Origin: an uncultured delta proteobacterium
GTDB lineage: Bacteria > Desulfobacterota > Syntrophobacteria > Syntrophobacterales > Syntrophobacteraceae
Assembly: GCA_963795045.1 (NCBI GenBank)
Contig: CAWCGB010000008.1
Location: 371,308-435,307, forward strand
DNA length: 64,000 bases
Direction of reading: 5' to 3'
This document shows, piece by piece, positions 1 through 54,695 of the stretch. The notes beneath the pieces were generated by a model. That model had not been told where the DNA came from. It saw only the letters and a program-made list of their open reading frames with translations, and ran no database searches. How positions within the stretch are numbered: the stretch's first letter is position 1; each line of letters begins with the position of its first letter. A program made the translations under genes and the position numbers.

Positions 1-234
1 TGATTCTTGCCCTCCCTGTTGGAATATGGATTTACGGTTAAATCCAAAGAAATAATGGAGGAAAACCTTGAAGGAAAAAGCTGTAGTCACCGCGGCGATT
101 ACCAACGCAAAGGAGCATTCATCATAAAAAGACTAGATTCTAAATTCGATCGGACCTTAATGTAATGATGTGCGAAACCATTAGGTCTGCGCTTCGTGAG
201 TGGGTCAAAACAATTCGACGAAAGGAAGAGGCAA

Positions 235-1275
235 ATGAGAAAACATCAGTCTACTTTAGCTATTACAATGACGGTGGTGTTCATGTTTATCGCTGTGGTT
301 GGGGGCATAGGTACTGCGCTGGCGGCTCCAGCATTGATACATAATGACACTACGATGACTCCCAGTCCAATTCCGGAGAATGAGAGGAATCTTCCTACTG
401 TTGTTGCCGAGCCGTATTTTAAAGTCTCTGATAAGGGCCTCCAATTGGAAGGCCCGGTGTTTGACCGCAATGGAAATCTTTTTTTTGTTGATGTTTGGAG
501 CGGCAGTGTATTTAAACTTACACCGGATAAAAAGTTATCAACTGTCCTCGGCCCGAACAAGCTTGGGTCGGCCGGGCTTGCTATTCATAAAGACGGTCGG
601 ATTTTCATTGCTTGTTTAGGGGATTTCAAAGTAGGCAGTGTAGTGGCGATCAAACCTGATGGGTCCGGGATGCAGACCATTATTCCGACGAGCGCAGGTT
701 ATCTGGTGGATGATCTGGTGTTTGACGACAAAGGCGGCTTTTACTTTACTGACTTCCATGGCAGTGCAACTAATCCCACAGGCGGAGTTTATTATGTTTC
801 GCCGCCGGATTATAAAACTATTACTCCCATTTTGCCTAATATGGCTATTGCCAACGGTGTTGCGCTGAGCCCCGATGGAAAAACCCTCTGGACAGACGAA
901 ACGGCCGGGAACAGGTTGTTCAGGGTGTCGCTGGCTGACGCAACTACTATTGCTCCGTTTGGCACGTCTATACCCTATCGTTTCACCGGCTGTCTCGGTC
1001 CCGACTCGATGCGCGTCGACAGCGAGGGCAACGTTTATGTGGCGATTTACGACCAGGGCAGATATCTGGTATTCAATAAAGACGGTAATCCAATAGGCCA
1101 GATTTTGCTTCCCGGCAGAGATAAAGGGCACAATATGCGTTCAACCAGTATGGCTATCAAGCCGGGTTCCAACGACATGTATGTTGTAACCAATGACGGG
1201 GATGGTGGTGAAGGTGCGCAGATATTTACCTGCAAGGCTTTTGGTAAAGGACTCTATTATTTCGGTCTTAAGTAA
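235..1275 (+). CDS. SMP-30/gluconolactonase/LRE-like beta-propeller protein with N-terminal membrane anchor or signal
   Basis: ORF 196..1275. A hydrophobic N-terminal segment (LAITMTVVFMFIAVVGGIGTALA) is followed by propeller-type motifs (NGNLFFVD, ANGVALSPDGKTLW, DSEGNVYVA). ATG 235 has AGGAAGAGG just upstream, so it is preferred over GTG 196. Confidence 0.6.
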   Translation: MRKHQSTLAITMTVVFMFIAVVGGIGTALAAPALIHNDTTMTPSPIPENERNLPTVVAEPYFKVSDKGLQLEGPVFDRNGNLFFVDVWSGSVFKLTPDKKLSTVLGPNKLGSAGLAIHKDGRIFIACLGDFKVGSVVAIKPDGSGMQTIIPTSAGYLVDDLVFDDKGGFYFTDFHGSATNPTGGVYYVSPPDYKTITPILPNMAIANGVALSPDGKTLWTDETAGNRLFRVSLADATTIAPFGTSIPYRFTGCLGPDSMRVDSEGNVYVAIYDQGRYLVFNKDGNPIGQILLPGRDKGHNMRSTSMAIKPGSNDMYVVTNDGDGGEGAQIFTCKAFGKGLYYFGLK

Positions 1276-1289
1276 CATTAAAGGGCCGC

Positions 1290-1391
1290 GTGATCCAAGA
1301 GCGGGCTCATGCACTCATTAGTATAGCGCATCCTGACTATAGAGAGGAACTTCGCGAGGAGGCTAAGAAACTGACTTTGCTTTTATTATAG
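1290..1391 (+). pseudogene. C-terminal fragment of an acetyl-CoA hydrolase/transferase-family gene
   Basis: Translates to VIQERAHALISIAHPDYREELREEAKKLTLLLL*. This aligns with the C-terminus of the intact CoA-transferase at 7347..8657 (EERAAALISIAHPKFRDQLRYEYKLL). No upstream coding continuation exists. Confidence 0.6.
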
Positions 1392-1789
1392 TGATTGTCG
1401 TAGAACGACCCCCAATCGCCGCTTGGTGATCCGTAAGTCCGGTCAGTGATCGGGCGAGCTGCCCACCGTCAACTTTGCAGTTGAGTCGTTTTCATCCTGT
1501 TGGCCGAAGCGTTCGGCGACTTATCATTTCCTGCGAGCTTACTCGATAGGAATTTGCCAAAAGAAGTCGAACGCTTCGGATACCTAATCCGGAGGGTGGT
1601 TTACCCCCATGTACGCATACCTTACACCCAGCGAGTTTCTCCCAGTAAGACTTCTGTTCGGGCTGTGTTTGCTTGGGGCTCTTTACCTTTTCGCAACACG
1701 CGTGAAATTTCTGTTCCAGGTCTTGCGTATCGGCGTCCATGATCCAAGACCTCGATTCGGCATCCCCGGCAAGAGGGTCATGAGCGTGC

Positions 1790-37772: not shown

Positions 37773-38624
37773 ATGAGTAAATTCGAGTTCGGCGAGTGGG
37801 TGCTGCTGACTTCACAAAAAGGGAAAAAATGGCTCGTTCGAGTGGAGGAGGCGTCGTATTCGTCGCATCTTGGAGGCATTAACCTCGGGGATATAGCGGG
37901 CAGGGAGGAAGGCGACTGGCTCGTGACCAGCAAAGGAGCTAAGCTGATGCTCTTCAAACCCGCTCTCCAGGACTACATTTTCAGCATGAAAAGGCGCACC
38001 CAGATTATTTACCCCAAAGACCTCAGCGCGATGATTTTCAGCGGGGATGTCTATCCGGGGTGTTACATCCTGGAGACCGGGATAGGCTCGGGCGCCCTTG
38101 CGCTTGCCCTGCTGCGCGCCATGTGCGGCCGAGGAAAGCTCATTTCGGTTGAGAAGAGGACCGAATTCGCTTTGGAAGCCCGTGAAAACATCAGCCGCTT
38201 TTTCGGCGGGACGCCGGAAAATCATGAGATCATCGTTGCCGATATCGAAGGCTTCCACCTCTCATGCCAGGTGGACCGGGTTTTCGTGGACCTTCCCGAA
38301 CCATGGCGCGCCGTCGAAAGCCTTTGTGGAATGCTCCGGATGGGAGGACTTCTGGTAAGCCTTAGCCCAAATGTGGGCCAGGTCCAGCTCACTCAAAGGC
38401 AACTTAAGATAAACGGGTTCGGGGACATAGAGCATTTCGAGCTTTTGCGGCGGGACTGGAAGATTGACCAGCTTCGCGCCCGCCCCTTTGACAGGATGGT
38501 GGCCCACACCGGGTTTATTACGGTTGCAAAAAGGGTTTCGGCAGAACGGGGAGAACCGATCGAGAGCGGTCCTGATTATGGGGAAGATTCCGAAACCGGG
38601 AAGGTCCCCGAAGAACTTGTTTAG
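37773..38624 (+). CDS. tRNA (adenine-N1)-methyltransferase (TrmI/GCD14-like)
   Basis: RRTQIIYPKDLSAMIF and the SAM motif ILETGIGSGALALAL. Confidence 0.8.
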   Translation: MSKFEFGEWVLLTSQKGKKWLVRVEEASYSSHLGGINLGDIAGREEGDWLVTSKGAKLMLFKPALQDYIFSMKRRTQIIYPKDLSAMIFSGDVYPGCYILETGIGSGALALALLRAMCGRGKLISVEKRTEFALEARENISRFFGGTPENHEIIVADIEGFHLSCQVDRVFVDLPEPWRAVESLCGMLRMGGLLVSLSPNVGQVQLTQRQLKINGFGDIEHFELLRRDWKIDQLRARPFDRMVAHTGFITVAKRVSAERGEPIESGPDYGEDSETGKVPEELV

Positions 38625-38661
38625 CACAGATTCTGACTCGCAGAATGGGAAATACCGAAAC

Positions 38662-39495
38662 ATGGAATTCAAGCAGCAAGTACTTTTTAACAAAATGAAC
38701 TCTACCGGCGAATTGAGCAACCTCGAACCAGGGCGGAATTCTAAGCCGGTATCGATAAAAGAAGAAAAGATCGACATCTCGATAGTGATTCCGCTACGTA
38801 ACGAAGCGGAAAACATTCTGCCTCTGGCCGACGAAATAAGATCCGTAATGGAGCGGGAATTTGCGGAATGGGAGTGCATCTGGGTTGATGACGGCTCAAG
38901 CGACGGCAGCCTGGATATACTTGTAGAACTTGCGCGCGCGGACCGCCGTCATAGATATATCTCCTTTGAACGAAACGCCGGGCAATCGGCCGCGCTCTGG
39001 GCAGGATTCAGGGAATCCAGGGCTCCAGTAATCGCCACAATGGACAGCGACGGCCAAAACGACCCGGCGGACATCCCTGCGCTGTTCCGGAATGTCGAAT
39101 CGGGCGCCGCCGACATGGCGAACGGCTATCGCGCCCAAAGGCAGGACAACCTGAAAAGAAGAATTTCATCCATTTTGGGCAACGGATTCAGAAACTGGCT
39201 GACCGGCAGGACCGTAAGAGACGCGGGATGCTCAACCAGGGTCTTTCGCAGGGAATGCATCGAATCATTCCCCCGATTTGCCGGAATGCACCGTTTTCTG
39301 CCTACGCTGGCAGCTCTGCAGGGCTTCAAACTTTCTGAGGCGCCCGTAAATCACCGGCCCAGGATCAAAGGCCGCTCAAAGTACTCGATCAGTAACCGGC
39401 TTTGGGTCTCGCTGCTGGATATGTTTGGCGTTTTCTGGCTGAAAAAAAGGGCCTTCCGTTACAGGATCGCAACGAAATCGCAACTCCCCGATTGA
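38662..39495 (+). CDS. Family 2 glycosyltransferase (polyprenyl-phosphate sugar transferase, GtrB/ArnC-like)
   Basis: ORF 38464..39495. ATG 38662 removes the overlap with the upstream gene. VIPLRNEAENI, VDDGSSDGS, DSDGQNDP (DxD) and a C-terminal TM helix. Confidence 0.8.
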   Translation: MEFKQQVLFNKMNSTGELSNLEPGRNSKPVSIKEEKIDISIVIPLRNEAENILPLADEIRSVMEREFAEWECIWVDDGSSDGSLDILVELARADRRHRYISFERNAGQSAALWAGFRESRAPVIATMDSDGQNDPADIPALFRNVESGAADMANGYRAQRQDNLKRRISSILGNGFRNWLTGRTVRDAGCSTRVFRRECIESFPRFAGMHRFLPTLAALQGFKLSEAPVNHRPRIKGRSKYSISNRLWVSLLDMFGVFWLKKRAFRYRIATKSQLPD

Positions 39496-39754: not shown

Positions 39755-39770
39755 AGGCACAAAAAGTGCA
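39755..39770 (+). promoter_or_regulatory. Sigma54 (-24/-12) promoter-like element upstream of the pilin gene
   Basis: AGGCAC-AAAAA-GTGCA compared with consensus TGGCAC-N5-TTGCA. The GG and GC spacing is exact. It ends 66 nt before ATG 39836. Confidence 0.5.
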
Positions 39771-39835
39771 TGCCACGTTCCCTGAGAAGATTGCGTCGTC
39801 ATCGAAATAAGGGACGGAAGGGGGACGGTCTCCAC

Positions 39836-40300
39836 ATGAACGGTAAACGTGGTTTCACTCTGGTCGAACTGGTAGTGGTCGTGGCGATCGTCGCTATCCT
39901 GGCGGTTGTCGCAACACCGGCTTACATCAATTACGTGAACCGCACGAAACAGGGCAGCGCTGTCAGTATGCTGCTCACAGCCCGGCTCGAGATGGAAGAG
40001 TTTAATGCGGACAATGGACGATACGCGAGTACCATACAATGCCTTCCTTCGTTTGGAAACGCGGCATGCCTGGCCGATTGCACTAACTGCGCCACCGCCA
40101 CCACGGTGCATAATTATACCTTCCGTGTCTCGGTCCCTCCCAGCTCGGCCACTTCGCCCTATTACCAGATTGCGGCAACGAGACAAATCTACGCGAATGT
40201 CGCTGCCGATAAGTTGACAATCAGCGCAAGCACTGACACTCCGATCGTACAGAACACGGCCGCGCTGAAATTTTCCGTTTTCCAGTGGTTGTTTCAATAA
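39836..40300 (+). CDS. Type IV pilin (major-pilin-like)
   Basis: ORF 39770..40300. ATG 39836 gives MNGKRG|FTLVELVVVVAIVAILA, the class III signal. 154 aa with four Cys in the C-terminal half. Confidence 0.85.
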   Translation: MNGKRGFTLVELVVVVAIVAILAVVATPAYINYVNRTKQGSAVSMLLTARLEMEEFNADNGRYASTIQCLPSFGNAACLADCTNCATATTVHNYTFRVSVPPSSATSPYYQIAATRQIYANVAADKLTISASTDTPIVQNTAALKFSVFQWLFQ

Positions 40301-40326: not shown

Positions 40327-40743
40327 ATGCCTAGATTTTTTATTTTGGGTATCGCAATTTTGCTTCTATTGCTTCCATTGTTTTCTCCCTGCAGCGCCAT
40401 GGCGTTCACGGTTCAAGGAGAAACGACTGTCATTCAACAAGGTGCGCCTTCCAAGGCGCCCGCCAAAGCGGCGCCGGCCACGACTTCATCGCACTCGCAG
40501 GCCAAGGCTTCATCGCAAACCTCGGCCAAGGCTTCATCGCAATCGCAGCCCTCGGTGCACAGGAAAGTCGTCAATGTAGTCGTAGACAGGATCGAGGAAG
40601 GCGCAGTCTATTCCAGAGACGGTCAGAAATTCCAAATTACCAGCGATACCAAGGTCATTGATAATAGCAATCCCGTAACAAAAATGAGAACAGCCGAACT
40701 GGCTTTCGAAAACGGTGACCTGGTGACAGTGACCCTGAAATAG
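40327..40743 (+). CDS. Secreted 138-aa protein of unknown function with a Ser/Gln/Ala/Lys low-complexity linker
   Basis: Signal peptide. A tandem 24-nt DNA repeat (40501-40524 and 40525-40548) encodes AKASSQTS/AKASSQSQ. The C-terminal ~60 aa look beta-rich. Confidence 0.6.
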   Translation: MPRFFILGIAILLLLLPLFSPCSAMAFTVQGETTVIQQGAPSKAPAKAAPATTSSHSQAKASSQTSAKASSQSQPSVHRKVVNVVVDRIEEGAVYSRDGQKFQITSDTKVIDNSNPVTKMRTAELAFENGDLVTVTLK

Positions 40744-40777: not shown

Positions 40778-43700
40778 GTGAGGCGAGCCACACTAAATTT
40801 TATTCTCTTTTCTTTTTTTTCGCTCGCATTTATACCCGGGGATGTTTACGGCAGCGCATGCAGCAATTCGCTCTATCCTCCGTTCATTGCCAACAACGTC
40901 AAACCCAACATACTCATAATCCTTGATAACTCCCAGAGCATGGATGAAGATTTCTACGGCAACGCGGTCGGTTCCTTTGCTTCAAGCAGCAAATCAGTGA
41001 TCGCAAGGCAGGCGCTGCAAAACCTGGTGGCCCAGATCCAGGATCAAGCCAATGTCGGAATAATGACATTCGGACTGCCCAGTGACACAAGTAATGGTTA
41101 CTACATTCACAACGGCATGCCTTTTGCCTCCTACAATCCCAACTCATACTGCCCCAATGCGACCCAAGCCACGATTCAGGCCTGCGTAAATTATTGCACG
41201 AACATGGACTCAGCCGATGCAGCCGCCTGTGATGCGGGCTGCCCCCCCAACGCATTACTCGGTCAAACGTTTACAAGTTTTACGGGTCAGCTCTTCACTC
41301 ACAACGACGGGACGAAGACAAACTTTACCGATCTCTTAATTACCAGTTATGCACCAGGCGACCCTACAAGAGCGAGGTATTGCGGGCTGGTCTACCCTAA
41401 GACTAAAAGTTGGCCGTACAACAATCCCTTAGGCTACACCACTACAGTTTATTATAACCAGGGAGACCCATACTATGACACGGCAGACGACCACACACTG
41501 TTCGGGTATTCCGGAAAAGATAGCCTAGCAGGCAGTGCGTACAGTACGGCGGAAAACGCCGCCAATACCTACACATACTGCCCCAATAAAGAGGGAACCA
41601 GCGATAGCTTTGTAGGTTATAGCAGCACCTCGACGACTCCCTGTAAAAATTACAAATTTATACCCACCGATTCGGACTGGGCTTTAGGGTTTTACAACTG
41701 GGGCCAGTCCATGCCCTGGTATTACGTGGGCCCCACATGGTTCAGCCAGAGTGGGGGGTCTCCTTCTCCACAGGGGTACCTTCACAATAAAATAACCCCC
41801 CTGAGCGGCACCACGTGCTACAACAGCTCCGGTGTATCCAATGGACAGGAATGCTCAACTACCTCGGACTGCACAGCCCCTTACAACTCGAGCTGTACAA
41901 ACAATTCCACTTATTACAACAGTCTTAATAGCTTACTCAATCCAAACGCCGATAACAGCGCCGGGTATATGAGCTGCACCCAAACCGGAACGAATGCAAA
42001 CCTATGCCCTTATATTATAAATGCCACCGACACGCCGACCGCCGGTACCCTGAGTTCGGCGCTCGCCTATTTCAACGGCCAGTACAAGAATGCAGGGGTG
42101 AACTATGCCAGTCCCATCACCTCGAAATGTCAAAAGAACTATATAATTTTCGTTACGGACGGCTTGCCTTCCACTTTAATGAACGGTACGCAAACCCAGA
42201 ACATTTCGCAGCTCATGACTGAAGTCACTACGGAGCTTGGCGACCTTCAATCAAACGTGTCGCAGACAATCAGCGGGACGGCCAAAATCTTTCCCGTCCT
42301 AACTTATGTTCTGGGGTTGGGCCTCACATCCGAGGCCAAAACAAATCTCGATGCCATGGCCAAGGCCGGCGGCACGCTCACCACCTCCGGACACGCTTAT
42401 TATGCCGATGAGCCCGACGAGTTGACCACTGCTTTGGAAACCATCATGGTAAACCTGCTGGGACAGGTTTCATCAGGAAGCGCCATCTCAATTCTCTCGC
42501 AAGGTCAGACCCAGAACGGCGCCAACATGCTGCAGGGCGTGTTTTATCCCGCGAAATACTTTGGGACGACAGCCATAACCTATCCGGGTTATCTATATAA
42601 CTATTGGTACTACCAAAACGGGCAATATAGCAACATAAGGGAGGATACCGTCCATGACTATATCCTCGAACTCGACCAGGACTACGGGTTAACTTTCCTG
42701 TTCGACACTCAGACAGGCCTTACAGTAGACCGCAAATCAGACCCGTCCGGCAGCGGCGATCCGACCGTATTTGTCGATAACGTCGGGCTGGATTCTCTTA
42801 CACCCCTATGGGAAGCTGGAAAGATGCTGCTCCAGGCAACCCCTGCCAGCAGGCAAATCCTCACTCCGGGGACAAACAGCAACGGTAGCGGACTGGTTAG
42901 TTTTGATACCTCCAATACCACCCTCACTACGCCCGCGTCTTCTCCACTGGGCAATCCGGCACTAATTCCGTCGACATTCGATGCCTGCCTTCAGCCTCCG
43001 GGAACGAGCAATACGGCTATCCTGGATAACCTGATAAATTATGTGCGGGGGACCGACATAACAAATACTTATTGTTCCAACGCCGCCGGGACCAGTTTCA
43101 GCACAACTCCCTGCAGTCCGACCAACCCATGTACGACCTCCCCTTACACAACCTGCTCCACGCTCACTAGCTGCAGGAACAGGACTGTAGGCCTCTGCTC
43201 CAACGGGACCCCGTGCAATTCGGACCCGGATTGCACGAGTGGAAGCTGCACGAAAAATGTGTGGAAAATGGGGGACATTATCTATTCTACGCCCCAGGTT
43301 CAAGCCAATTACAGTTATTGCTACAATGGCACTTCTTACAGCACCCAGTCCTGCACTCAGAACTCCGATTGCACTACCGGCAATTATACTACATGCCAGC
43401 AGAAGCAGAGCGTCGTCTTTGTCGGCGCCAACGACGGGATGCTGCACGCCTTCCAGACGGGAGTTATAAGCACCACGGGATTGAATTCATCGAACTTCCA
43501 GGTGGCAGAATTGACGGGAATTCCGACCTCGAGCATGGGCCAGGAATTGTGGGGCTTCATACCCACGAACAGTCTTCCCTACCTGAGGTGTCTTGCATCT
43601 CAGACCGGTTGCCATCTCTATTACAACGATTTGAGCCCATACATCACGACGATGAATCTGAGTCAGCAATATTGTTCCAATGCTACTTCTCAGACCTGCA

Positions 43701-45406
43701 CCCAGGACTCCGATTGCACTTCGCCCGGTACGTGCGCGCCGAAGGCCGTGACGGTCCTGATCGGCGGGATGAGACTCGGGGGCGCGGCTATCAATTCCAC
43801 AGGTACAGCCACTTACTGCTTCAACAGCTCCGGGGTAACCAATGGAGGCACATGCTCAGGGGGTACCTCGGGCTGCAGCTCCGGTTATACCTCAAGCTGT
43901 TCAGGTCAATGCTTAAACAGCTCCGGAGTACCCAACGGACACAAATGCTCAAGTGTGTCGAACTGCACAACGGCCCCATATAATGCGGGCTGCTCCACCA
44001 GCTCTTATTATTATATCAACGCGCCGTCGGACACATGTTCAAACTTGTCATCGTTGTACTCAAGCCCGCAAAGCTTGTGCTCCGATGCCAGCAACTCCAA
44101 TAGCACCAACTACAATCCTTCGAACTGCACGGGCCTTTCCGAATACTACGCCCTCGATATCACCGACGCCCAGAACCCCAAACTCCTATGGGAATTCACC
44201 CATCCATTTCTGGGTTCTTCCTACTCCGGGCCGGCGGTCATCCACAAGTGGTCAAATTCGACCCTTGTGAGCGGCGACCAATATTACGTGATGTTTTTGT
44301 CCGGCCCGACAAACCCGAAGGACGGCAGCTCGATTCAAGACGTCAAGACCTTCGTCCTGACACTTAACAGCGCTAACCTGGGAATCGGCAGCGTATACTA
44401 CAGGGACCTCGGAGCCACCACCGCGAACGGCTTCGGCGGGAGGCTTTTCACCAACGGCCTGCAAGTAAACGGGGACAATTACACGGACTTTGTTTTCTTC
44501 GGGTACGCAAATTCCCCAACCGGAAGCGCGACCGGCTGGCAGGGAGGCCTCGGGAAAATCTACACCAGCAAGACCAAGACCGATTCGAACGGAAACATTG
44601 CGATCGATTATACAGCCACGGACCCCAGTAACTGGACCTATGACGTGACAACTTACGCCGGCGCAGTTACACAGCCCATAACCGCCAGGGTAGCGACCGA
44701 GCAGTGTTTCAACACGTTGTATCTCTATTCCGGGACAGGAAGGTATTTTTTCCCGCTGGACAACTATAGCGGGCCCGGTTTGAATTATCTCATGGGAATA
44801 CCGTTTACCTGCGATCAATACAACAGGTGCGGCAATTGCCTCAACAGCTCCGGGGTTTCCAATGGACAGGCATGCTCAAGTACTTCGGACTGCGCAGCCC
44901 CTTATAACTCGAGCTGTTCCAGCGCCATTAGTATCCAGAACAACAACCAATGTACACAATTGCAGGATGGAAACTTTAATCAGGCCGGCTGGCAGATTCA
45001 ACTGGATGCTGCGGGGGCGGATACGGGCTTTCTCGCGGAGAGGATGATTACCGATCCCACCACATCGTCCGGCAACAAGGTATATTTAACCACCTCCGAA
45101 CCCACTTCCGATCCATGCGGCTATGGCGGCCAGAGCCGCGTGTGGGGTATGAACTGCGCCACAGGGGCCGCTATCTCAGATCAATCATGCCCTGCATATA
45201 CGGTGGCCGACCCGACCGGCACCTTGTATGTGCAAACCTCCACCGGGGCGATAAACAAGATCTCCGTCGCCAACGATTTTCAGTACAACAACAACAGAGC
45301 AACTCAGTGGTTTACAGGCATTCCTCCGGAAAATTCTCCCCCGCCGGCGCAGCAGTCAACGGCGACGGCAAAAACGGGGCAGTTAATGCAGTGGATTGAA
45401 AAATGA
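40778..45406 (+). CDS. PilY1-like type IV pilus tip adhesin (vWA + PilC/PilY1 beta-propeller) with Cys-rich insertions
   Basis: Signal peptide, MIDAS LDNSQSM, FVTDG, VVFVGANDGMLHAFQTG, ELWGFIP, YYALDITDAQNPKLLWEF and a Ca-loop-like NGDNYTD. 1542 aa. Confidence 0.85.
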   Translation: MRRATLNFILFSFFSLAFIPGDVYGSACSNSLYPPFIANNVKPNILIILDNSQSMDEDFYGNAVGSFASSSKSVIARQALQNLVAQIQDQANVGIMTFGLPSDTSNGYYIHNGMPFASYNPNSYCPNATQATIQACVNYCTNMDSADAAACDAGCPPNALLGQTFTSFTGQLFTHNDGTKTNFTDLLITSYAPGDPTRARYCGLVYPKTKSWPYNNPLGYTTTVYYNQGDPYYDTADDHTLFGYSGKDSLAGSAYSTAENAANTYTYCPNKEGTSDSFVGYSSTSTTPCKNYKFIPTDSDWALGFYNWGQSMPWYYVGPTWFSQSGGSPSPQGYLHNKITPLSGTTCYNSSGVSNGQECSTTSDCTAPYNSSCTNNSTYYNSLNSLLNPNADNSAGYMSCTQTGTNANLCPYIINATDTPTAGTLSSALAYFNGQYKNAGVNYASPITSKCQKNYIIFVTDGLPSTLMNGTQTQNISQLMTEVTTELGDLQSNVSQTISGTAKIFPVLTYVLGLGLTSEAKTNLDAMAKAGGTLTTSGHAYYADEPDELTTALETIMVNLLGQVSSGSAISILSQGQTQNGANMLQGVFYPAKYFGTTAITYPGYLYNYWYYQNGQYSNIREDTVHDYILELDQDYGLTFLFDTQTGLTVDRKSDPSGSGDPTVFVDNVGLDSLTPLWEAGKMLLQATPASRQILTPGTNSNGSGLVSFDTSNTTLTTPASSPLGNPALIPSTFDACLQPPGTSNTAILDNLINYVRGTDITNTYCSNAAGTSFSTTPCSPTNPCTTSPYTTCSTLTSCRNRTVGLCSNGTPCNSDPDCTSGSCTKNVWKMGDIIYSTPQVQANYSYCYNGTSYSTQSCTQNSDCTTGNYTTCQQKQSVVFVGANDGMLHAFQTGVISTTGLNSSNFQVAELTGIPTSSMGQELWGFIPTNSLPYLRCLASQTGCHLYYNDLSPYITTMNLSQQYCSNATSQTCTQDSDCTSPGTCAPKAVTVLIGGMRLGGAAINSTGTATYCFNSSGVTNGGTCSGGTSGCSSGYTSSCSGQCLNSSGVPNGHKCSSVSNCTTAPYNAGCSTSSYYYINAPSDTCSNLSSLYSSPQSLCSDASNSNSTNYNPSNCTGLSEYYALDITDAQNPKLLWEFTHPFLGSSYSGPAVIHKWSNSTLVSGDQYYVMFLSGPTNPKDGSSIQDVKTFVLTLNSANLGIGSVYYRDLGATTANGFGGRLFTNGLQVNGDNYTDFVFFGYANSPTGSATGWQGGLGKIYTSKTKTDSNGNIAIDYTATDPSNWTYDVTTYAGAVTQPITARVATEQCFNTLYLYSGTGRYFFPLDNYSGPGLNYLMGIPFTCDQYNRCGNCLNSSGVSNGQACSSTSDCAAPYNSSCSSAISIQNNNQCTQLQDGNFNQAGWQIQLDAAGADTGFLAERMITDPTTSSGNKVYLTTSEPTSDPCGYGGQSRVWGMNCATGAAISDQSCPAYTVADPTGTLYVQTSTGAINKISVANDFQYNNNRATQWFTGIPPENSPPPAQQSTATAKTGQLMQWIEK
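41816..41896 (+). repeat. Cys-rich module R1 (CYNSSGVSNGQECSTTSDCTAPYNSSC)
   Basis: aa 347-373 of the PilY1-like ORF. About 72 of 81 nt are identical to R4 by manual alignment. Confidence 0.8.
43817..43900 (+). repeat. Cys-rich module R2 (CFNSSGVTNGGTCSGGTSGCSSGYTSSC)
   Basis: aa 1014-1041. It lies in tandem with R3. Confidence 0.75.
43910..43993 (+). repeat. Cys-rich module R3 (CLNSSGVPNGHKCSSVSNCTTAPYNAGC)
   Basis: aa 1045-1072. Confidence 0.75.
44837..44917 (+). repeat. Cys-rich module R4 (CLNSSGVSNGQACSSTSDCAAPYNSSC)
   Basis: aa 1354-1380. Confidence 0.8.
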
Positions 45407-45960
45407 AAAAGGAAAGCGGGTTCACTTTAGTCGAACTAATGGTGGTAGTCGCGATTACCGTGCTGGTGCTGGGGTGGGGTATTCCCTCATACTCGACCTG
45501 GAAGACGAAACACGATATCGAAAACCAGATGGTCCAGCTCTACAGCGACCTTCAGTTCGGGCGCATGACCGCCTACGGCAGGAAAGTCGTAGGGGGGGTA
45601 TTCTGGGGAACAGGCGGCACGGTCCCCAAGTCCACGACCGCCAACCCCACCTCGTACTACATAAGATATGATAATAGCAGCCCGCTGAATAATTCAATCG
45701 AAGACACCGGTACAGACGTTCAGATCGGGGCCGTTGCAACAAAGTATCCAATTACTGTTGTGGTGAGCCCGGTCCAGACCCTGAACAGCGTGAGCTTTGA
45801 CGGCAGGGGTTTTCTGAATACGCTCAATCAGGCGACTCCCGCCAGTTCGATCACGTTCAGCGTTTCATCGAGCTCCGGGGCTGCAATGGATTGTGTGGCG
45901 GTAACAAGCACCAGAATAACCCTCGGGAAAATGAACGCCGGAAATTGCGCGCCAAAATAA
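45403..45960 (+). CDS. Minor pilin, FimT/FimU (GspH-like)
   Basis: MKKESG|FTLVELMVVVAI prepilin motif. Its ATG overlaps the PilY1 stop (ATGA). Confidence 0.75.
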   Translation: MKKESGFTLVELMVVVAITVLVLGWGIPSYSTWKTKHDIENQMVQLYSDLQFGRMTAYGRKVVGGVFWGTGGTVPKSTTANPTSYYIRYDNSSPLNNSIEDTGTDVQIGAVATKYPITVVVSPVQTLNSVSFDGRGFLNTLNQATPASSITFSVSSSSGAAMDCVAVTSTRITLGKMNAGNCAPK

Positions 45961-45969
45961 GGGGTATTC

Positions 45970-46389
45970 GTGACTATTAACCTTCGCGGTAAACGGGGCT
46001 TTACGCTCGTCGAGGTCCTGGTAGCTCTTTTGATCCTGGCCGTCGGCATGTTGGCATCGGTCATAGGAATCATGAAGGCGCTCGATTATAGCATGATGGA
46101 CGAGATGCGAAATGATGCGATGAAGATAGCACAGGAACAGCAGGAAGCGGCCAGGAACATGGACTATAATGCTCTCCCGCAAATTCCTGCCACGGCGCCA
46201 AATGGTGTGCAAATTACGAGGGAGGTTAGAAAACAACTGGTCCCTTATACGGTCATTTGCAACCTGCAACAACCTCCTCCCGCCGCCGCAGGTATGGGAG
46301 GGCGCATAGTCGAGTTCAAGGTCCAGTGGACATTTAAAGGCATCACATATACATATGACCAGGAAACGATCGTGAGGCAAACGAGATGA
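45970..46389 (+). CDS. Minor pilin, PilV-like
   Basis: GKRG|FTLVEVLVALLILAVGML. GTG start. Confidence 0.75.
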   Translation: MTINLRGKRGFTLVEVLVALLILAVGMLASVIGIMKALDYSMMDEMRNDAMKIAQEQQEAARNMDYNALPQIPATAPNGVQITREVRKQLVPYTVICNLQQPPPAAAGMGGRIVEFKVQWTFKGITYTYDQETIVRQTR

Positions 46390-47675
46390 ACAGGCAGCGC
46401 GGCATGACGATGGTGGAGCTGATGGTCAGCCTTGCGGTTGTCCTGCTTGTCATTGGTGCGGCAACCACGGCCTACCTGAAGCTTCTGAGGACTTACACGA
46501 ACCAGGGCAATCTGGCCGAGAACTATATGGCCAATTTGACCGGACTGGAGATGTTGCGCTACGATATCGAAATGGCCGGGTTAGGGCTGCCTGCCCCACC
46601 AACTGCAGCACTGCCGCCTGGCGTCACCTACACCGAAGCCGCCGCGCAGGGCGCCAACGCCCCGGCGCCTCCCTACGATCCAGCCGCCCTTAACGATGCG
46701 ACGTCTTCCGTGCCGCGCGCCTTCGTCCAGTTGGACAACGGCGGGGCGAACAATTCCGATGTGCTTGCTATAAAATCGACCGCAGCGAACCTCAACCCTA
46801 CGAGCAAGAAATGGTCCATGATCTCCCGCGCCGGCCCCGCGGCTCCTGCGGTGGTCAAAATGTGGGGGGGCGGGCAGTCCCTCGATCCTGTCATGGACTT
46901 TACCGCCGGTCCTCCCGCTGACATGTTCATCATTCTCGACAATAACTACCAGTTGGAAGCCGACCCATCCAATAACTTTAATTGGTGTTTTCCCTTCGTC
47001 GGCGCAGCAGGCCCCCCAACCGGTTATTATTCTTCAGTAGGCCTCTCGGGCGCCGTGCTCCCGCCCACCGTCCCGACCACCGGCGATCAGTCGGTCTACC
47101 ATATTTATGGCCTGGATAACAGCGCAGGCGTACACAGAATGCCGTTTAACCGCGTGGATTACTACCTGGGCAATAATGTCAATTTCCCAAGTCCAAAAAG
47201 TTGCGCGCCAGGCACCTTCACCCTGTTTCGAAGCACTATCAAGCAGGCTGACGGCACGCTCATCACGACTCCCCTTATCGATTGCGTGATGGATTTTCAG
47301 GTGGCCTTCGGGCTCGCCACCAATTTAGACAACAATATCAACAAATGGCAAACGAATCTGGCCGGTCTGCAGGCTTTGGACATACAGCAGCAGCTCCGCG
47401 AAGTGAGAGTATTTCTAGTCTACCAGGAAGGGCTCGGCGATTTAAGCAAGTCCCCGAGTTTCCGGTTTTCCGGCTTTTTAAATCTTGGTGACCAGGACAT
47501 TGCCAACGGCATTGATCCGGCTGATTATCCACAGGTACCGAACAATTTTCAACAGTGGAGCCCTGCGATAATGAATGGGGCGCTGAGCAACCCCACTCCT
47601 TTCGGATTGCAACTTCAATACCGCTGGAAGGTCGTCGAAATGGCTGTAAAACCTATGAACTTGATAAGGCCATAA
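46386..47675 (+). CDS. Minor pilin, PilW-like
   Basis: QRG|MTMVELMVSLAVVLLVIG. 429 aa. It overlaps the PilV stop by 4 nt. Confidence 0.75.
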   Translation: MNRQRGMTMVELMVSLAVVLLVIGAATTAYLKLLRTYTNQGNLAENYMANLTGLEMLRYDIEMAGLGLPAPPTAALPPGVTYTEAAAQGANAPAPPYDPAALNDATSSVPRAFVQLDNGGANNSDVLAIKSTAANLNPTSKKWSMISRAGPAAPAVVKMWGGGQSLDPVMDFTAGPPADMFIILDNNYQLEADPSNNFNWCFPFVGAAGPPTGYYSSVGLSGAVLPPTVPTTGDQSVYHIYGLDNSAGVHRMPFNRVDYYLGNNVNFPSPKSCAPGTFTLFRSTIKQADGTLITTPLIDCVMDFQVAFGLATNLDNNINKWQTNLAGLQALDIQQQLREVRVFLVYQEGLGDLSKSPSFRFSGFLNLGDQDIANGIDPADYPQVPNNFQQWSPAIMNGALSNPTPFGLQLQYRWKVVEMAVKPMNLIRP

Positions 47676-48244
47676 TGAAAAACTCCATCCAAAACCAAAA
47701 GGGAATAGCGCTCATCACCACCCTGATGCTTGTCGTCCTTGGGTTTGGGGTTGTGGCGATTATGTTGCGGCTCTCTACTCAGGAAACGAAACTGGCCAGG
47801 CTCGAACAAGGCTATACAACCGCACTGGATGCGGCAAAGGGCGCGACCGACCTTTTCATTTTCACTGTGCAAAATGGATCGGCACTGGGCACTCCACCGA
47901 CCCCGCCTTTCGGAGCGGCCTTCAATCAGAGCAATTGTCTTAAAGCAAAGATGACCACCGCTACGTCAGGCTGGACCGGAGCTGGATGTCCACAGACGAA
48001 CAACACCACCGCCCCTTCCGCAATAAGCTCCAACCCCGCCGATAGTCCGGACATAACCTTTACACTGTCAAATAATTACACCGTCAACGTCAAAATCATC
48101 GATACCACGATGACCGGGCCCGGCAGCCCCCCAAGCGATCCGTGCCGGAACGGCTGCTACTTTTACACAGTAGTAGCACGGGCCGCATCGCTGGATTTAA
48201 GCGAGCATGCCGACATTTCTTTCGTCTACCGCTACGATCAATAG
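47675..48244 (+). CDS. Minor pilin, PilX-like
   Basis: ORF 47555..48244. ATG 47675 overlaps the PilW stop (TAATG). QKGIALITTLMLVVLGFGVVAIML is the PilX N-terminal type. Confidence 0.7.
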   Translation: MKNSIQNQKGIALITTLMLVVLGFGVVAIMLRLSTQETKLARLEQGYTTALDAAKGATDLFIFTVQNGSALGTPPTPPFGAAFNQSNCLKAKMTTATSGWTGAGCPQTNNTTAPSAISSNPADSPDITFTLSNNYTVNVKIIDTTMTGPGSPPSDPCRNGCYFYTVVARAASLDLSEHADISFVYRYDQ

Positions 48245-48674
48245 AGAGAAGAGAGACAAGGGCGCAAGGTGAATATTTCACCCTCGTGCACTTCAGGGTA
48301 CGCGTGTATGCAAACCCTCGATTCGCCTGCAGGAACGAAAAATCCCCCTCTTTCAGGTCAAAAAATCCGATTCGGAAGCCCCGGATCTGGTCCGGCCCAG
48401 GCTCTCGCGGGACGTGGAATTCTCGTAAGGTTAAATCCTCCTGCGTTCATCGGTCTTTCCGGATGGACACCAGGCAGGGTAAACTGGTATAAAATCAATA
48501 CCAGGCCGCTGCCCGAATCCGGCTTTGCTCTCCCCATTTTCCTGCGTGCGCCGGCCGTTATCAATGTAAGTTAAAGGGTTCCATGTGGTGCCGTTTACAG
48601 ATGGCAACCTGGTATTTCACCACTTGGGTGAAATGGCAAATCTTCCATCCATTGCTCACCACGCGAGACTCAAA

Positions 48675-49337
48675 ATGAAGCCACGGCGGGCTGTGCTGCT
48701 CACTTTTTCGGTTATTGCCGTCTGTATCGTAAGCTACGAGTTTTTCGATCAGCCGGCCGCGCGTTTTTGTTCGACGATCGGCGGCAGAATTGCGTACATC
48801 TCCGAGCTGATAACGCGGCTGGGATTATCTACGCCATACCTGGCGGCAGCTCTTGCCGGATTTATCTATTTCAGGTTTATCAACAAGAACGAAACGCATG
48901 CAAACGCAGCCGCTTTTCTGCTCGCGGCCGTTGCCCTATCGGGACTTGCGAACGATCTGATCAAGGTGCTGGTTGGAAGGAGCAGGCCGGGACTGCTGCT
49001 TTCCCAGGGCATTTACTGGTTTAAACCCTTTACCAGCCAATATTATTATGCCTCGTTTCCGTCAGGGCATGCCAACACGATAGGCGCTCTGTGTTACGGG
49101 CTTTACAAAGTGATCGGCCGCTTCAGGTGGGCCTGGCTGACTATAGCTCTGGCGGTGATGGCCAGCCGTGTCATACTCGGGGCCCATTTTCCCAGCGACG
49201 TCCTGTTCGGGGCTTACCTGGGAGTAGTCGTTACTGAACTCATAGCTGAGGCTTTTGAGAAAAGATCAAAGCGGATAACATGGCAACCCGGACAGGGACC
49301 GCAGCAGCCGGCAGGCAACGGATTTGAAGGCCAATAG
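48675..49337 (+). CDS. PAP2-family phosphatase
   Basis: ORF 48585..49337. KVLVGRSRP, PSGH and SRVILGAHFPSD acid-phosphatase motifs. The start (48633 or 48675) is uncertain. Confidence 0.8.
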   Translation: MKPRRAVLLTFSVIAVCIVSYEFFDQPAARFCSTIGGRIAYISELITRLGLSTPYLAAALAGFIYFRFINKNETHANAAAFLLAAVALSGLANDLIKVLVGRSRPGLLLSQGIYWFKPFTSQYYYASFPSGHANTIGALCYGLYKVIGRFRWAWLTIALAVMASRVILGAHFPSDVLFGAYLGVVVTELIAEAFEKRSKRITWQPGQGPQQPAGNGFEGQ

Positions 49338-50975: not shown

Positions 50976-51929
50976 ATGTCCCGCTTCAAATCCGCACTTG
51001 TGCTTAGCGGAGGTTCCGCGCGAGCCCTTTCGCACCTGGGGGTCATCCAGGAAATCGAGCGCAGAAACCTGAAGTTCGACTTGATAGTAGGAACGAGCAT
51101 GGGGGCCGTAATCGGCGGCCTTTACGCCTGCTATCGAGACTCGGCAAAGGTCCTGGCGCGTCTCAAAAATCTTTTCAAAAGCGAACTCTTCCTCAGGACC
51201 ACCTCCAACGCAGTCGATGACAATCCCGTTTTTCTGGGTCCGGAAGGCTTTTTTAACCGGTTTATATGGCTGTTTAGAAGAGGGGTCTTCCTTAGCCACA
51301 CCATGCTGCAGATGGAACTGGTAGCCGAAGATCTCTACGACGAATTGTTCTCTATGCTGATACCGGAAGTGCTCATAGAAGAACTGCCGGTCCGGTTTGC
51401 CGCGGTCGCAACGGACCTGCTGACGGGAGAAGAGATAGTACTGACGAAGGGGTCTTTGAGACGCGCCGTTGCAGCAAGTTCCTCGATACCGGGCATGTTT
51501 CCGGTGATCGAGATAAACGGCCGGACGCTCGTGGACGGGGGCTGGGCGGATAACGTTCCCGTTGCCCCGGCGATCGCCATGGGAGCTCATTTCGTCCTTG
51601 CCTCCGACGCCACTCTCGAGGTTAGCGGAATGGCGACAGAGCCAAAGTCCGCAATGGAGATATTGTTTCGCTGCAATGAAATCTCGCGTGTTCTTCTGAC
51701 CAGACATCTGAAATCGGCCGCTGATGTCCTGATTACCCCTGAGATAGGCAACATATCCTGGGCGGACTTCAATTCTTTGGACCATTGTCTGGCCGCAGGC
51801 AGAAAAGCCTTCGATCAAAACTCTTCAGCCATTTTGAAACAGTTGCTTGTGCGCCGGTTCCAGACACTTGAAGGGACCATCCACCCCGGCAGGTTCGGAG
51901 AATGGCGGCATGAGTTCCTGATAATGTGA
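50976..51929 (+). CDS. Patatin-like phospholipase
   Basis: GGSARALSHLGV (oxyanion), GTSMG (GxSxG) and VDGGW (catalytic Asp). Confidence 0.9.
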   Translation: MSRFKSALVLSGGSARALSHLGVIQEIERRNLKFDLIVGTSMGAVIGGLYACYRDSAKVLARLKNLFKSELFLRTTSNAVDDNPVFLGPEGFFNRFIWLFRRGVFLSHTMLQMELVAEDLYDELFSMLIPEVLIEELPVRFAAVATDLLTGEEIVLTKGSLRRAVAASSSIPGMFPVIEINGRTLVDGGWADNVPVAPAIAMGAHFVLASDATLEVSGMATEPKSAMEILFRCNEISRVLLTRHLKSAADVLITPEIGNISWADFNSLDHCLAAGRKAFDQNSSAILKQLLVRRFQTLEGTIHPGRFGEWRHEFLIM

Positions 51930-52211: not shown

Positions 52212-53594
52212 CTAAGCAGCTAATGGTTCGATTTTATAGCCCATTTGCTTAAGAGTTCTGGCATACGTTGCCAAACGACGCTCGGTAAAACGGGCCTCGT
52301 AGACATCGGAGCCTGTGTCAACATATGCTTGGCCATAACGGATCAACCGATAAACCAGTTGGGCCAACTTGCGGGCCGTCGCAAAAACGGCGACCGACTT
52401 GCCTTTGCGTCTCGAGATGCGGCGATAGTAGGCTCCAAGTGCCGTTTTCGAATTGCGCAAACTTGTTGCGGCCATGCGCAATGCATTGCACACCCGCGTG
52501 GAGGTGACAGCCCGGAACTTGCCTGGGACCTTTTTGCCTGCGCTGATCGAGATATTTGGCGCTAGACGCAAGTACGAAACGAAGTGGCCTTCATCTGGGA
52601 ATACAGACAGGTCGGGACCTAACTCACTCATGATAACGGCGGCGGTATCAACACCAATGCCGTCAATTGTAGTGAGATCAAAGCCCGACATGCGATAAAG
52701 GGCCTGGCGCATTGGCTCCTGACCCAGCTTGGAAAATTTAGTCGCTTTGGCTCTGGATGCCGGAGGCGGTGCCGATGAATCCTTTGAGTCAGGAGGTTGC
52801 AAGGAGTTGACGTACTTGAGGATCTCGGCATCATAGTCGGCGATGACGCCACATAGCTGATCATAAACCTTTAGGGCTTGACCAAGGTTGAACAGGTGCT
52901 CAAGGCGCCAGTTACCGGTGAGCTCCTCGGCGATCCTGTCTTCCGATTTCTGGCATCGGCAATCACGCAAACTCGCCAGGGCACGAGGGTCCCGTTCACC
53001 GCTTATAATGGCACGGATAATTGCCATGCCGGTAAGGCCTGTAATATCCGAAACGGCGTGATGCACGCAAATGTTCATCTGGTCGAGGCTCTTTTGCATC
53101 CGTCGGACCCAGTCGGAACGCAGGTCTACAATTGTATTGCGCTCACGTATGAGAGCTCGCAGGCAACAGATGTCCTCGCCTGGTCGGAAAGACCCCCGGA
53201 GCAATCCGCAGGCGTGCAGTAATTGAATCCACTGGCAATCGATCATGTCGGTTTTGCGGCCCGGAACATGACTAATCTGGCGAGCATTGACCAGTTGGAC
53301 GTCGAAGCCGCGGCTATCGAGGATTTCAAATAGCGGGATCCAGTATACGCCGGTGCTTTCCATGGCGACAGTAGCGATCTTCTGCTGCTCAAGCCATCCG
53401 GCGAGGCGCAACAGTTCCGGGGTTGTGGTTCCAAAATGCTTTACGTTAGGGGAACCGTCCGGTAAAGGTGGACCGGCCACGCAGTGCTCGCGTGAGCCCA
53501 GATCGATACCGGCTGCATTGGGTTGAATTGGGTTCAAAGAGTGTGGCTGCCCTTTGCGGCCTTTGCCTGGTGCATTCTTACGCTTCTGGGCCAT
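52212..53594 (-). CDS. IS110-family (DEDD) transposase/recombinase
   Basis: AGIDLGS, VAMESTGVYW, and the C-terminal Transposase_20-like LTTIDGIGVDTAAVIMSELG. Confidence 0.9.
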   Translation of the reverse strand: MAQKRKNAPGKGRKGQPHSLNPIQPNAAGIDLGSREHCVAGPPLPDGSPNVKHFGTTTPELLRLAGWLEQQKIATVAMESTGVYWIPLFEILDSRGFDVQLVNARQISHVPGRKTDMIDCQWIQLLHACGLLRGSFRPGEDICCLRALIRERNTIVDLRSDWVRRMQKSLDQMNICVHHAVSDITGLTGMAIIRAIISGERDPRALASLRDCRCQKSEDRIAEELTGNWRLEHLFNLGQALKVYDQLCGVIADYDAEILKYVNSLQPPDSKDSSAPPPASRAKATKFSKLGQEPMRQALYRMSGFDLTTIDGIGVDTAAVIMSELGPDLSVFPDEGHFVSYLRLAPNISISAGKKVPGKFRAVTSTRVCNALRMAATSLRNSKTALGAYYRRISRRKGKSVAVFATARKLAQLVYRLIRYGQAYVDTGSDVYEARFTERRLATYARTLKQMGYKIEPLAA

Positions 53595-53999: not shown

Positions 54000-54695
54000 A
54001 TGGCTCAGAGGACTGGCCTAGCCGTTTTTATCATGGTTTTGAGTCTATGTTTGCTCGCACCTGCCTTTTCAAATGCCGGAGTCGGAGAGGAAGCCAAGAT
54101 TCAGGCATCAACCGCCGTCATAAAAGAGATCATGGAAATCCCGGAAAGTGCAATTCCGCCCAGTCTTTTGTGCAGCGCACACGGGATCGTAATTTTTCCC
54201 GATCTGCTGAAGGCCGGCTTTATTTTTGGCGGCCGCTATGGATGCGGGGTGCTGCTGGTGCGCAATCAGGACGGGACTTGGAGTAACCCGGTCTTTTTTC
54301 GCCTCATAGGAGGCAGCTTCGGGTGGCAGATCGGCGCCCAATCCACCGACGTTATCCTTGTGCTCAAAAGCATTCGCAGTCTGGATGCGATAAGCGGAGG
54401 CAAATTCACTCTCGGGGGTGACGCTTCGGTAGCAGCCGGCCCGGTCGGCAGGCAAGCCGAAGCGGCAACAGACGTTATGCTCACGGCCGAGATCCTCTCC
54501 TACTCGAAAAGCCGGGGCCTTTTCGTGGGCCTTTCGCTTGAAGGGGCCGCAATTCAGGTGGACTACGGCTCGACCGCGGCATTCTATAACGTTCCGGGAT
54601 TGCTGCCGGTGGATATTTTGAAAAACCGGAATATGACGGCCCCTGCCTCTGCCATGGAGCTTAGACGGGTGATCGAGTGGTACTCCAAACAGTGA
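54000..54695 (+). CDS. SYLF/DUF500 (Ysc84-like) lipid-binding domain protein, secreted
   Basis: Signal peptide. GGSFGWQIGAQSTDVILV, GGDASVAAGPVGR and SRGLFVGLSLEG. Confidence 0.8.
   Translation: MAQRTGLAVFIMVLSLCLLAPAFSNAGVGEEAKIQASTAVIKEIMEIPESAIPPSLLCSAHGIVIFPDLLKAGFIFGGRYGCGVLLVRNQDGTWSNPVFFRLIGGSFGWQIGAQSTDVILVLKSIRSLDAISGGKFTLGGDASVAAGPVGRQAEAATDVMLTAEILSYSKSRGLFVGLSLEGAAIQVDYGSTAAFYNVPGLLPVDILKNRNMTAPASAMELRRVIEWYSKQ

Follow-up and report, generated by a model that had tools for sequence, protein, structure and literature searches.

The 64,000-nucleotide window analysed here, taken from contig CAWCGB010000008.1 (positions 371,308 to 435,307) of an uncultured delta proteobacterium of peat or soil that belongs to the family Syntrophobacteraceae, contains a pilY1-family gene whose product of 1542 amino acids (aa) carries eight copies of a small module defined by four cysteines, and this module corresponds to no named domain family. 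One copy lies in a large insertion within the N-terminal vWA domain and seven lie in loops of the C-terminal propeller region. PilY1 proteins determine both the targets to which a type IV pilus adheres and the way in which the cell senses surfaces, and to our knowledge nearly all mechanistic work on them has been done on a few pathogens and on Myxococcus. We hold with moderate confidence the joint view that the gene product would be a PilY1-type, tip-associated large subunit of a Syntrophobacteraceae type IV pilus and that its modules would act as two-disulfide staples of surface loops.

The first-pass annotation of this DNA had recognized seven modules in the protein, four long (M1, M6, M7 and M8; positions in Table 1) and three shorter (M3, M4 and M5). 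All seven are present as described, and a general four-Cys pattern adds an eighth, M2, so that the count has to be raised accordingly. From the query and 120 homologues we gathered 282 distinct four-Cys segments. The module, of 21–28 residues in the window protein, typically has the spacing C-x10-12-C-x5-C-x7-8-C; the commonest spacings among the segments are (11,5,7), (10,5,7) and (11,5,8), and the five-residue interval between the second and third cysteines is common to all ten of the ten commonest spacing classes. The consensus can be written C-[SFYL]-[ND]-[GS]-[ST]-[GS]-[VF]-x-N-x-x-x-C-[STQ]-x-[NDT]-S-[DN]-C-T-x-x-P-Y-[NT]-[ST]-[ST]-C, and in a local re-search with a profile hidden Markov model (HMM) the four cysteines were kept in 189 of 189 full-length matches. 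When the protein was shuffled 2000 times, the general pattern occurred on average 0.36 times and at most four times, as against the eight occurrences observed, and the strict pattern, which occurs four times in the real protein, was never found. The modules also repeat at the DNA level: M1 and M8 share 89% identity across a stretch of exactly 81 nt that begins with the first Cys codon and ends with the last, and identities of 64–83% were found for other pairs of modules. The modules are discrete units, gained or lost whole.

The failure of the first-pass annotation to place the module in any named family was borne out by searches of Pfam, NCBIfam and PDB sequences, none of which gave a significant match, whether to EGF, EB, knottin-type toxin, squash inhibitor, Dickkopf-like or other small Cys-rich families. 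Searched against Pfam at an expect value (E) of ≤10, the isolated modules gave only matches below the family cut-offs, namely an EB module (16.4 bits, cut-off 24.3; E 0.0096), Toxin_21 (18.6 bits, cut-off 21) and Squash (14.2 bits); no metal-binding family was matched, and nothing related in sequence to PSI or EGF was detected. The best match of the module profile among all PDB sequences had an E of 0.3. We also made an exhaustive hmmsearch, in which a 31-position module profile was compared with 1.84 billion representative proteins at E ≤0.001. It yielded 18 matches, and all those that cover the full profile are PilY1 homologues, whole or fragmentary (P0011, P0035, P0039, P0043, P0122, P0123, P0126, P0128, P0129 and P0131); P0061, whose best stretch covers profile positions 1–26, is likewise a PilY1 homologue. 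Since one canonical module is enough for a score of about 40 bits (P0131), single-copy occurrences elsewhere should be detectable. Complete modules are, as far as these searches reach, confined to this PilY1 lineage. The non-PilY1 matches (cadherin/Big_9, CPDGTTVPNGQTCP, NGVxCVSASDCWAVG and CTQDSDC repeats) cover part of the profile only, and those scanned against Pfam fell into other named families or gave nothing above threshold; they were rejected as relatives. P0125 and P0130, retrieved by this search, are unrelated proteins that consist of 17-residue two-Cys repeats in tandem (CPDGTTVPNGQTCPxV) and have no Pfam match above threshold. The repeat is similar to the module's first half (CLNSSGVPNGHKC), a likeness that could be due to convergence or to a very distant relationship.

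Relatives differ in the number and position of their modules. Scoring a site as occupied where a four-Cys segment is present in the alignment of 121 sequences, we found each site filled in 2–64 of the proteins. Many homologues hold a full module of 25–26 aa at the site of the shortened M3; most close relatives have a single module, and only a few a tandem pair, at the M6/M7 site; and the M8 site is filled only in the window protein, in its 90%-identical homologue P0001 and in the genome locus L001. The number of modules falls from eight in the query to none in distant homologues, and the number of cysteines from 58 to about 16–30 in the more distant ones. Among 31 genome loci compared, 20 contain 2–7 complete modules and all 20 belong to Syntrophobacteraceae or to unnamed ‘delta proteobacterium’ metagenome-assembled genomes (MAGs), and within the same 31 loci no modules were found in the homologues from Aquificales, Hydrothermota, Nitrospiraceae, Syntrophorhabdus, Syntrophaceae or Desulfacinum. 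The loci of the closest relatives are from Syntrophobacteraceae MAGs, several of which bear isolate names derived from bogs or fens. Locus L001, which is fully syntenic and encodes a protein 80% identical overall, has M1 to M5 and M8, with just one module where the window protein has the M6/M7 pair. Since most close homologues, L001 included, hold one module at this site, the M6/M7 tandem is a recent duplication. M1 and M8 of the window (89% nucleotide identity) are as similar to one another as each is to its L001 orthologue (88–92%), which indicates either that one was copied shortly before the two species diverged or that gene conversion between them may be ongoing. Taken together, the M1/M8 likeness and the M6/M7 tandem show that the module spreads by copying within the gene, not only in tandem but also to remote loops, in the case of M1 and M8 to a site 3 kb away. 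Separately, in L033, the contig of P0001, the first ~300 codons of pilY1 (positions 1–980) are out of frame with the rest, so that P0001 is only 1234 aa long; this is either a sequencing error in the assembly or a pseudogenized copy.

The assignment of the protein to the PilY1 family rests on several lines of evidence. The sole match of a phmmer search of PDB sequences was the C-terminal domain of Pseudomonas aeruginosa PilY1 (3HX6; E 4.9e-11), in an alignment that spans aa 831–897 and 1122–1466 and includes the GDII..SP, VxVGANDGMLHxF and ALDxTDxxNxKLLWE motifs, the Ca-binding loop and the C-terminal CxxG region. A database search recovered 387 homologues, many of which carry a precomputed PF05567 assignment (about 40 among the best 120 of the 387) or were named PilY1 by the Joint Genome Institute (JGI). 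Those with organism names are from Syntrophobacteraceae or other Deltaproteobacteria, except for one Thermovibrio and one Desulfurellaceae record. The PilY1 hallmarks listed by the first-pass annotation are all in place: the Sec-type signal peptide MRRATLNFILFSFFSLAFIPGDVYG (aa 1–25), DNSQS (aa 50–54), FVTDG (aa 458–462), VVFVGANDGMLHAFQTG (aa 879–895), ELWGFIP (aa 923–929), YYALDITDAQNPKLLWEF (aa 1123–1140) and NGDNYTD, which sits within aa 1229–1237. The family assignment and its vWA-plus-propeller architecture are thus upheld by the 3HX6 match, a trace of VWA_2, structural models, the fold classes of structural matches, the homologues and the neighbouring pilin genes.

The same annotation had placed the DxSxS and TDG strands of the vWA domain about 400 aa apart. 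The measured distance is 408 aa, and the domain, which like that of many but not all PilY1 proteins bears a MIDAS motif, is indeed split by a large insertion. Pfam VWA_2 matches aa 45–99 at 18.7 bits, under its cut-off of 27, and the homologues P0054 and P0092 carry PF00092 or PF13519. An AlphaFold2 (AF2) model of aa 1–620 (mean predicted local distance difference test, pLDDT, 86.6; predicted template modelling score, pTM, 0.82) has the alternating strand and helix order of a vWA fold: a strand at aa 44–49 with DxSxS, a helix at 72–87, a strand at 92–98, a helix at 421–432 and a strand at 454–460 that ends in TDG, followed by three further helix–strand units. The insertion lies between the strands at aa 92–113 and the helix at aa 421–432, is mostly modelled with pLDDT >90, and is kept across the family, with conserved columns of Cys and Tyr in the alignment. 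When this model was compared with the PDB by Foldseek, the top-ranked matches were mostly vWA-containing proteins, every one with E ≥0.01; they include Sec23/24, SpaC, beta3 integrin, Streptococcus sanguinis PilB, GBS104, RrgA, the LapA vWFA domain, factor B and ITIH1. The model of aa 560–1542 (pLDDT 81.7, pTM 0.86) is almost entirely beta and gave weak Foldseek matches only, mostly to propeller proteins (best E 6.6e-3); 3HX6 was not recovered by it from the PDB, probably owing to the many insertions. The Foldseek results thus back the general fold classes, propeller and vWA, and nothing narrower. In the propeller, the loop that aligns with the EF-hand-like Ca-binding site of P. aeruginosa PilY1 (44462–44488, aa 1229–1237) is degenerate and reads QVNGDNYTD, starting with Gln where the canonical D-x-N-x-D-x-x-x-D starts with Asp, whereas the aligned loop of L001 is the canonical DVNDDGYTD; the first Asp ligand has thus been lost in the window strain.

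The AF2 models, one of them run on a 55-row alignment, also bear on the modules themselves. M2, M3 and M4, which are well sampled in the alignment, were modelled with pLDDT 76–94 and share a pattern in which one strand runs up to the first Cys, a second, short one lies inside the module and a third starts from the last Cys; M1 has the same strand pattern in the N-terminal model. The well-sampled modules are accordingly predicted to be short beta-hairpin excursions (pLDDT 73–94). With respect to 3HX6, M4 takes the place of the loop that links the GDII..SP strand to the VYVGANDGMLH strand, M5 to M7 lie within aa 897–1122, a 225-aa stretch that matches about 60 residues, and M8 falls in a poorly conserved stretch of the alignment.

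Our current working hypothesis is that each module would form two internal disulfides and that these would staple a short beta-hairpin excursion. Long loops on the surface of an adhesin that is exported and force-bearing would thereby be kept rigid and resistant to proteases, and the exposed surface would incidentally be remodelled from lineage to lineage. This reading fits the retention of all four cysteines in every case, the stereotyped framework of non-Cys positions and published views of disulfides in PilY1 proteins (PMC9210963, PMC13190605). Several points weigh against it. The 189 full-length matches include no Cys-substituted variants, so that there are no natural two-Cys forms from which to infer the pairing; AF2 gave pLDDT <50 for M8 and for aa 1022–1053, a stretch that takes in most of M6 and the very start of M7, probably since few alignment rows cover these sites; neither structural model matches anything in the PDB by Foldseek at E ≤0.001; and in the Pfam hmmscan of the whole protein PF05567 was not matched at E ≤1, nor did the NCBIfam scan of the whole protein return a family, both probably because the many insertions break up the domains. 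In addition, the hosts are strict anaerobes.

An alternative explanation, put forward in the first-pass annotation, is that the modules are ligand-binding determinants, each a knob whose variable surface would determine the targets of the pilus tip. We regard this as possible though doubtful, and the present data lend it no specific support. The number and position of modules do differ among close relatives, the modules occupy regions that are loops in 3HX6, and the gene as a whole evolves fast. However, module residues do not vary more than other parts of the protein: the ratio of nonsynonymous to synonymous substitution rates (dN/dS) is 0.73 for modules and 0.51 for the rest in comparison with L033, and 0.43 and 0.47, respectively, in comparison with L001, for module sets of only ~170–200 codons. 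The difference is not a clear one and hypervariability of the modules was rejected. Moreover, the positions other than Cys follow a strongly stereotyped scheme (N3, G6, SDC, PYN), which has the look of a structural framework, and the MIDAS (metal ion-dependent adhesion site) of the vWA domain is the more usual ligand site in adhesins of this kind. Over the whole pilY1 gene dN/dS is high, ~0.5 against both L001 and L033, as would be expected if relaxed or diversifying selection acted on all of the tip protein and not on its modules alone.

Two other readings would leave the cysteines chemically active. In the more elaborate, which we consider a long shot, the four-Cys unit would be an autonomously folding mini-domain that originated in a single PilY1 lineage and spreads to new surface loops by intragenic copy-and-paste. 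In the strictly anaerobic hosts its thiols might, instead of serving as inert staples, make redox- or metal-reactive contacts, for instance with syntrophic partner cells or iron-sulfide minerals. In the other, which is improbable, the module cysteines would not be disulfide-bonded at all in a reducing habitat and would act as free thiols, as ligands of Zn or Fe, or in attachment to iron-sulfide minerals. The four invariant cysteines of each module and the strictly anaerobic habit of the host family are in keeping with such a role, but the C-x11-C-x5-C-x7-C arrangement lacks the CxxC knuckles of Zn ribbons, rubredoxins and ferredoxins, no His or acidic co-ligands accompany the cysteines, no metal-binding family of Pfam was matched, and the protein is exported and otherwise Cys-rich in the manner of disulfide-bonded extracellular proteins.

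That the modules serve as N-linked glycosylation acceptors is very improbable. The start of the module, C-x-N-[GSA]-[ST], places an N-x-S/T sequon at a fixed position, 121 of the 282 distinct modules begin C-x-N-x-S/T, and the operon has a gene for a family 2 (GT2) glycosyltransferase on one side and one for a phosphatase of the PAP2 family on the other. Nevertheless, sequons are not enriched in the protein as a whole (33 observed, 29 expected from composition), and position 3 is Asp in 39 of the 282 modules, a residue that cannot be N-glycosylated and that fits a role in an Asx turn; on these two counts the role was judged unlikely. In addition, no oligosaccharyltransferase was seen among the part of the window's open reading frames (ORFs) that were scanned. 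Finally, the idea that the modules are meaningless low-complexity sequence or an assembly artefact, for which the compositional bias of the protein (T+S+G+N = 41%) might speak, is effectively refuted by modules with invariant cysteines in dozens of independent assemblies from different studies (among them L001 and the other module-bearing loci of the 31), by an intact reading frame and by the confident AF2 models of several modules.

The disulfide-staple reading can be set against what is known of other PilY1 proteins. P. aeruginosa PilY1 (PA4554) resembles the window protein in its homologous propeller, with the GANDGMLH, ALDxTD..LLWEF and Ca-loop motifs, in its N-terminal vWA domain and in being encoded with minor pilins. 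It has 11 cysteines, and its disulfides have been discussed as mechanical elements of PilY1 (PMC9210963); the window protein differs in having 58 cysteines, eight inserted four-Cys modules, the ~320-aa insertion that splits the vWA domain, ~225 rather than ~60 aa between the aligned segments, and Gln in place of the first Ca-site Asp. In Myxococcota, PilY1 clades 1.5–1.7 comprise long vWA-propeller proteins with Cys medians of 30–41 and 5–20 predicted disulfides, and these Cys-rich features have been read as stabilizing extracellular domains (PMC13190605, 2026). The window protein is like them in length, architecture and high Cys content, but its 58 cysteines exceed theirs and no repeated module is defined in that report; all the PilY1 proteins in which complete modules were recovered are members of this protein's homologue set or closely similar to it, and the named members of the set are, apart from the two records noted above, from Syntrophobacteraceae or other Deltaproteobacteria. 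The suggestion in the first-pass annotation that the feature is undescribed therefore stands for the repeated module as a unit but not for a high Cys content with many predicted disulfides, already reported for PilY1 clades (PMC13190605). The novelty lies in recognizing a four-Cys module that is discrete and mobile and is limited to a PilY1 clade centred on the Syntrophobacteraceae.

Likenesses outside the family are looser. The tip adhesins of Gram-positive sortase pili, RrgA, GBS104 and SpaC, also have vWA domains with large inserts, but the Foldseek matches to them are weak (E ≥0.015), the pilus system is different and they have no propeller. Eukaryotic integrin and semaphorin/plexin ectodomains, in which small disulfide-rich modules accompany a propeller, a vWA-like domain or both, offer an analogy only; plexin sema domains and beta3 integrin are among the weak Foldseek matches, but a sequence relationship to their PSI and EGF modules was not detected and the four-Cys modules lie in loops rather than in a stalk.

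Table 1. Features of the pilY1-family gene, its product and the neighbouring genes. Coordinates are window positions; site occupancy is given as number of proteins among the 121 aligned.
Feature	Coordinates	Residues (aa)	Strand	Basis and remarks
pilY1-family gene	40778..45406	1542 in total	+	GTG start; 58 Cys; ORF listing and translation, 3HX6 match, homologues
N-terminal vWA domain	40895..42472	~40-565	+	MIDAS motif, Pfam VWA_2 below cut-off, AF2, Foldseek
MIDAS DxSxS	40925-40939	50-54	+	motif
Insertion of ~320 aa in vWA domain, holds M1	41075..42022	~100-415	+	AF2, family alignment
M1	41816..41896	347-373	+	CYNSSGVSNGQECSTTSDCTAPYNSSC; site in 8/121; pLDDT 73-86
TPTAGT		419-424	+	motif within vWA domain
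TDG (aa 460-462) within FVTDG	42149-42163	458-462	+	motif
PilY1 C-terminal region with beta-propeller	42515..45277	~580-1500	+	3HX6 alignment, AF2, weak Foldseek
M2	43073..43156	766-793	+	CSNAAGTSFSTTPCSPTNPCTTSPYTTC; site in 21/121; pLDDT 76-83
M3, shortened form	43196..43249	807-824	+	CSNGTPCNSDPDCTSGSC; site in 46/121; pLDDT ~88-91
M4, most widely shared site	43319..43396	848-873	+	CYNGTSYSTQSCTQNSDCTTGNYTTC; site in 64/121; pLDDT 88-94
M5, short form	43673..43735	966-986	+	CSNATSQTCTQDSDCTSPGTC; site in 7/121; pLDDT ~70
M6 and M7, tandem	43817..43993	1014-1041, 1045-1072	+	motif and DNA repeat comparison
M8	44837..44917	1354-1380	+	CLNSSGVSNGQACSSTSDCAAPYNSSC; site in 2/121; 89% DNA identity to M1; pLDDT <50
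GT2 glycosyltransferase	38464-39495		+	flanks pilus operon; similar-sized ORF in L001
Type IV pilin	39770..40300		+	Pfam N_methyl and ComP_DUS; upstream of pilY1
Small secreted protein	40327..40743	138 in total	+	between pilin and pilY1; no Pfam match
Minor pilin genes	45403..48244		+	FimT/GspH-like, PilV-like, PilW, PilX
FimT/GspH-like	45403-45960		+	N_methyl above cut-off; GspH below
PilV-like	45970-46389		+	N_methyl above cut-off
PilW	46386-47675		+	N_methyl above cut-off; PilW below
PilX	47675-48244		+	PilX_N below cut-off
PAP2-family phosphatase	48585-49337		+	flanks pilus operon; similar-sized ORF in L001
IS110-family transposase	52212-53594		-	DEDD_Tnp_IS110 and Transposase_20

The pilY1 gene is located among genes for pilins, including minor pilins of the kinds (FimU/T, PilV, PilW and PilX) that in PilY1 systems make up the tip complex together with PilY1, and the order of pilY1 and the minor pilin genes is identical in L001 and L033. 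The pilin encoded upstream matches ComP_DUS, the family of the Neisseria minor pilin that acts as receptor for the DNA-uptake sequence, at 34.6 bits (cut-off 27.3), and its true start is likely to be Met23, before GFTLVELVVV. The small ORF that follows it encodes a signal peptide and an S/A/Q-rich low-complexity stretch, and ORFs of similar size, matched by size and place only, occupy the same position in L001 (7531–7956) and L033 (475–885). Further downstream, the IS110 ORF lies between a patatin-like gene (50976–51929) and a Ysc84-like gene (54000–54695). In L001, ORFs of identical length at these two positions (317 and 231 aa) are adjacent, so that the IS110 ORF looks like a strain-specific insertion of an insertion sequence.

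These observations leave the general view of PilY1 and type IV pilus function unchanged, and they will be of interest mainly to specialists in pili and adhesins and perhaps to protein engineers, for whom the modules, if they are two-disulfide staples, would be a compact natural unit for stabilizing loops. The modules would also be a useful marker for this PilY1 clade of the Syntrophobacteraceae. For the biology of the family, the lineage shows a simple way of remodelling an adhesin, in which a 27-residue Cys module is copied into its loops and the number of cysteines rises from about 16–30 to 58.

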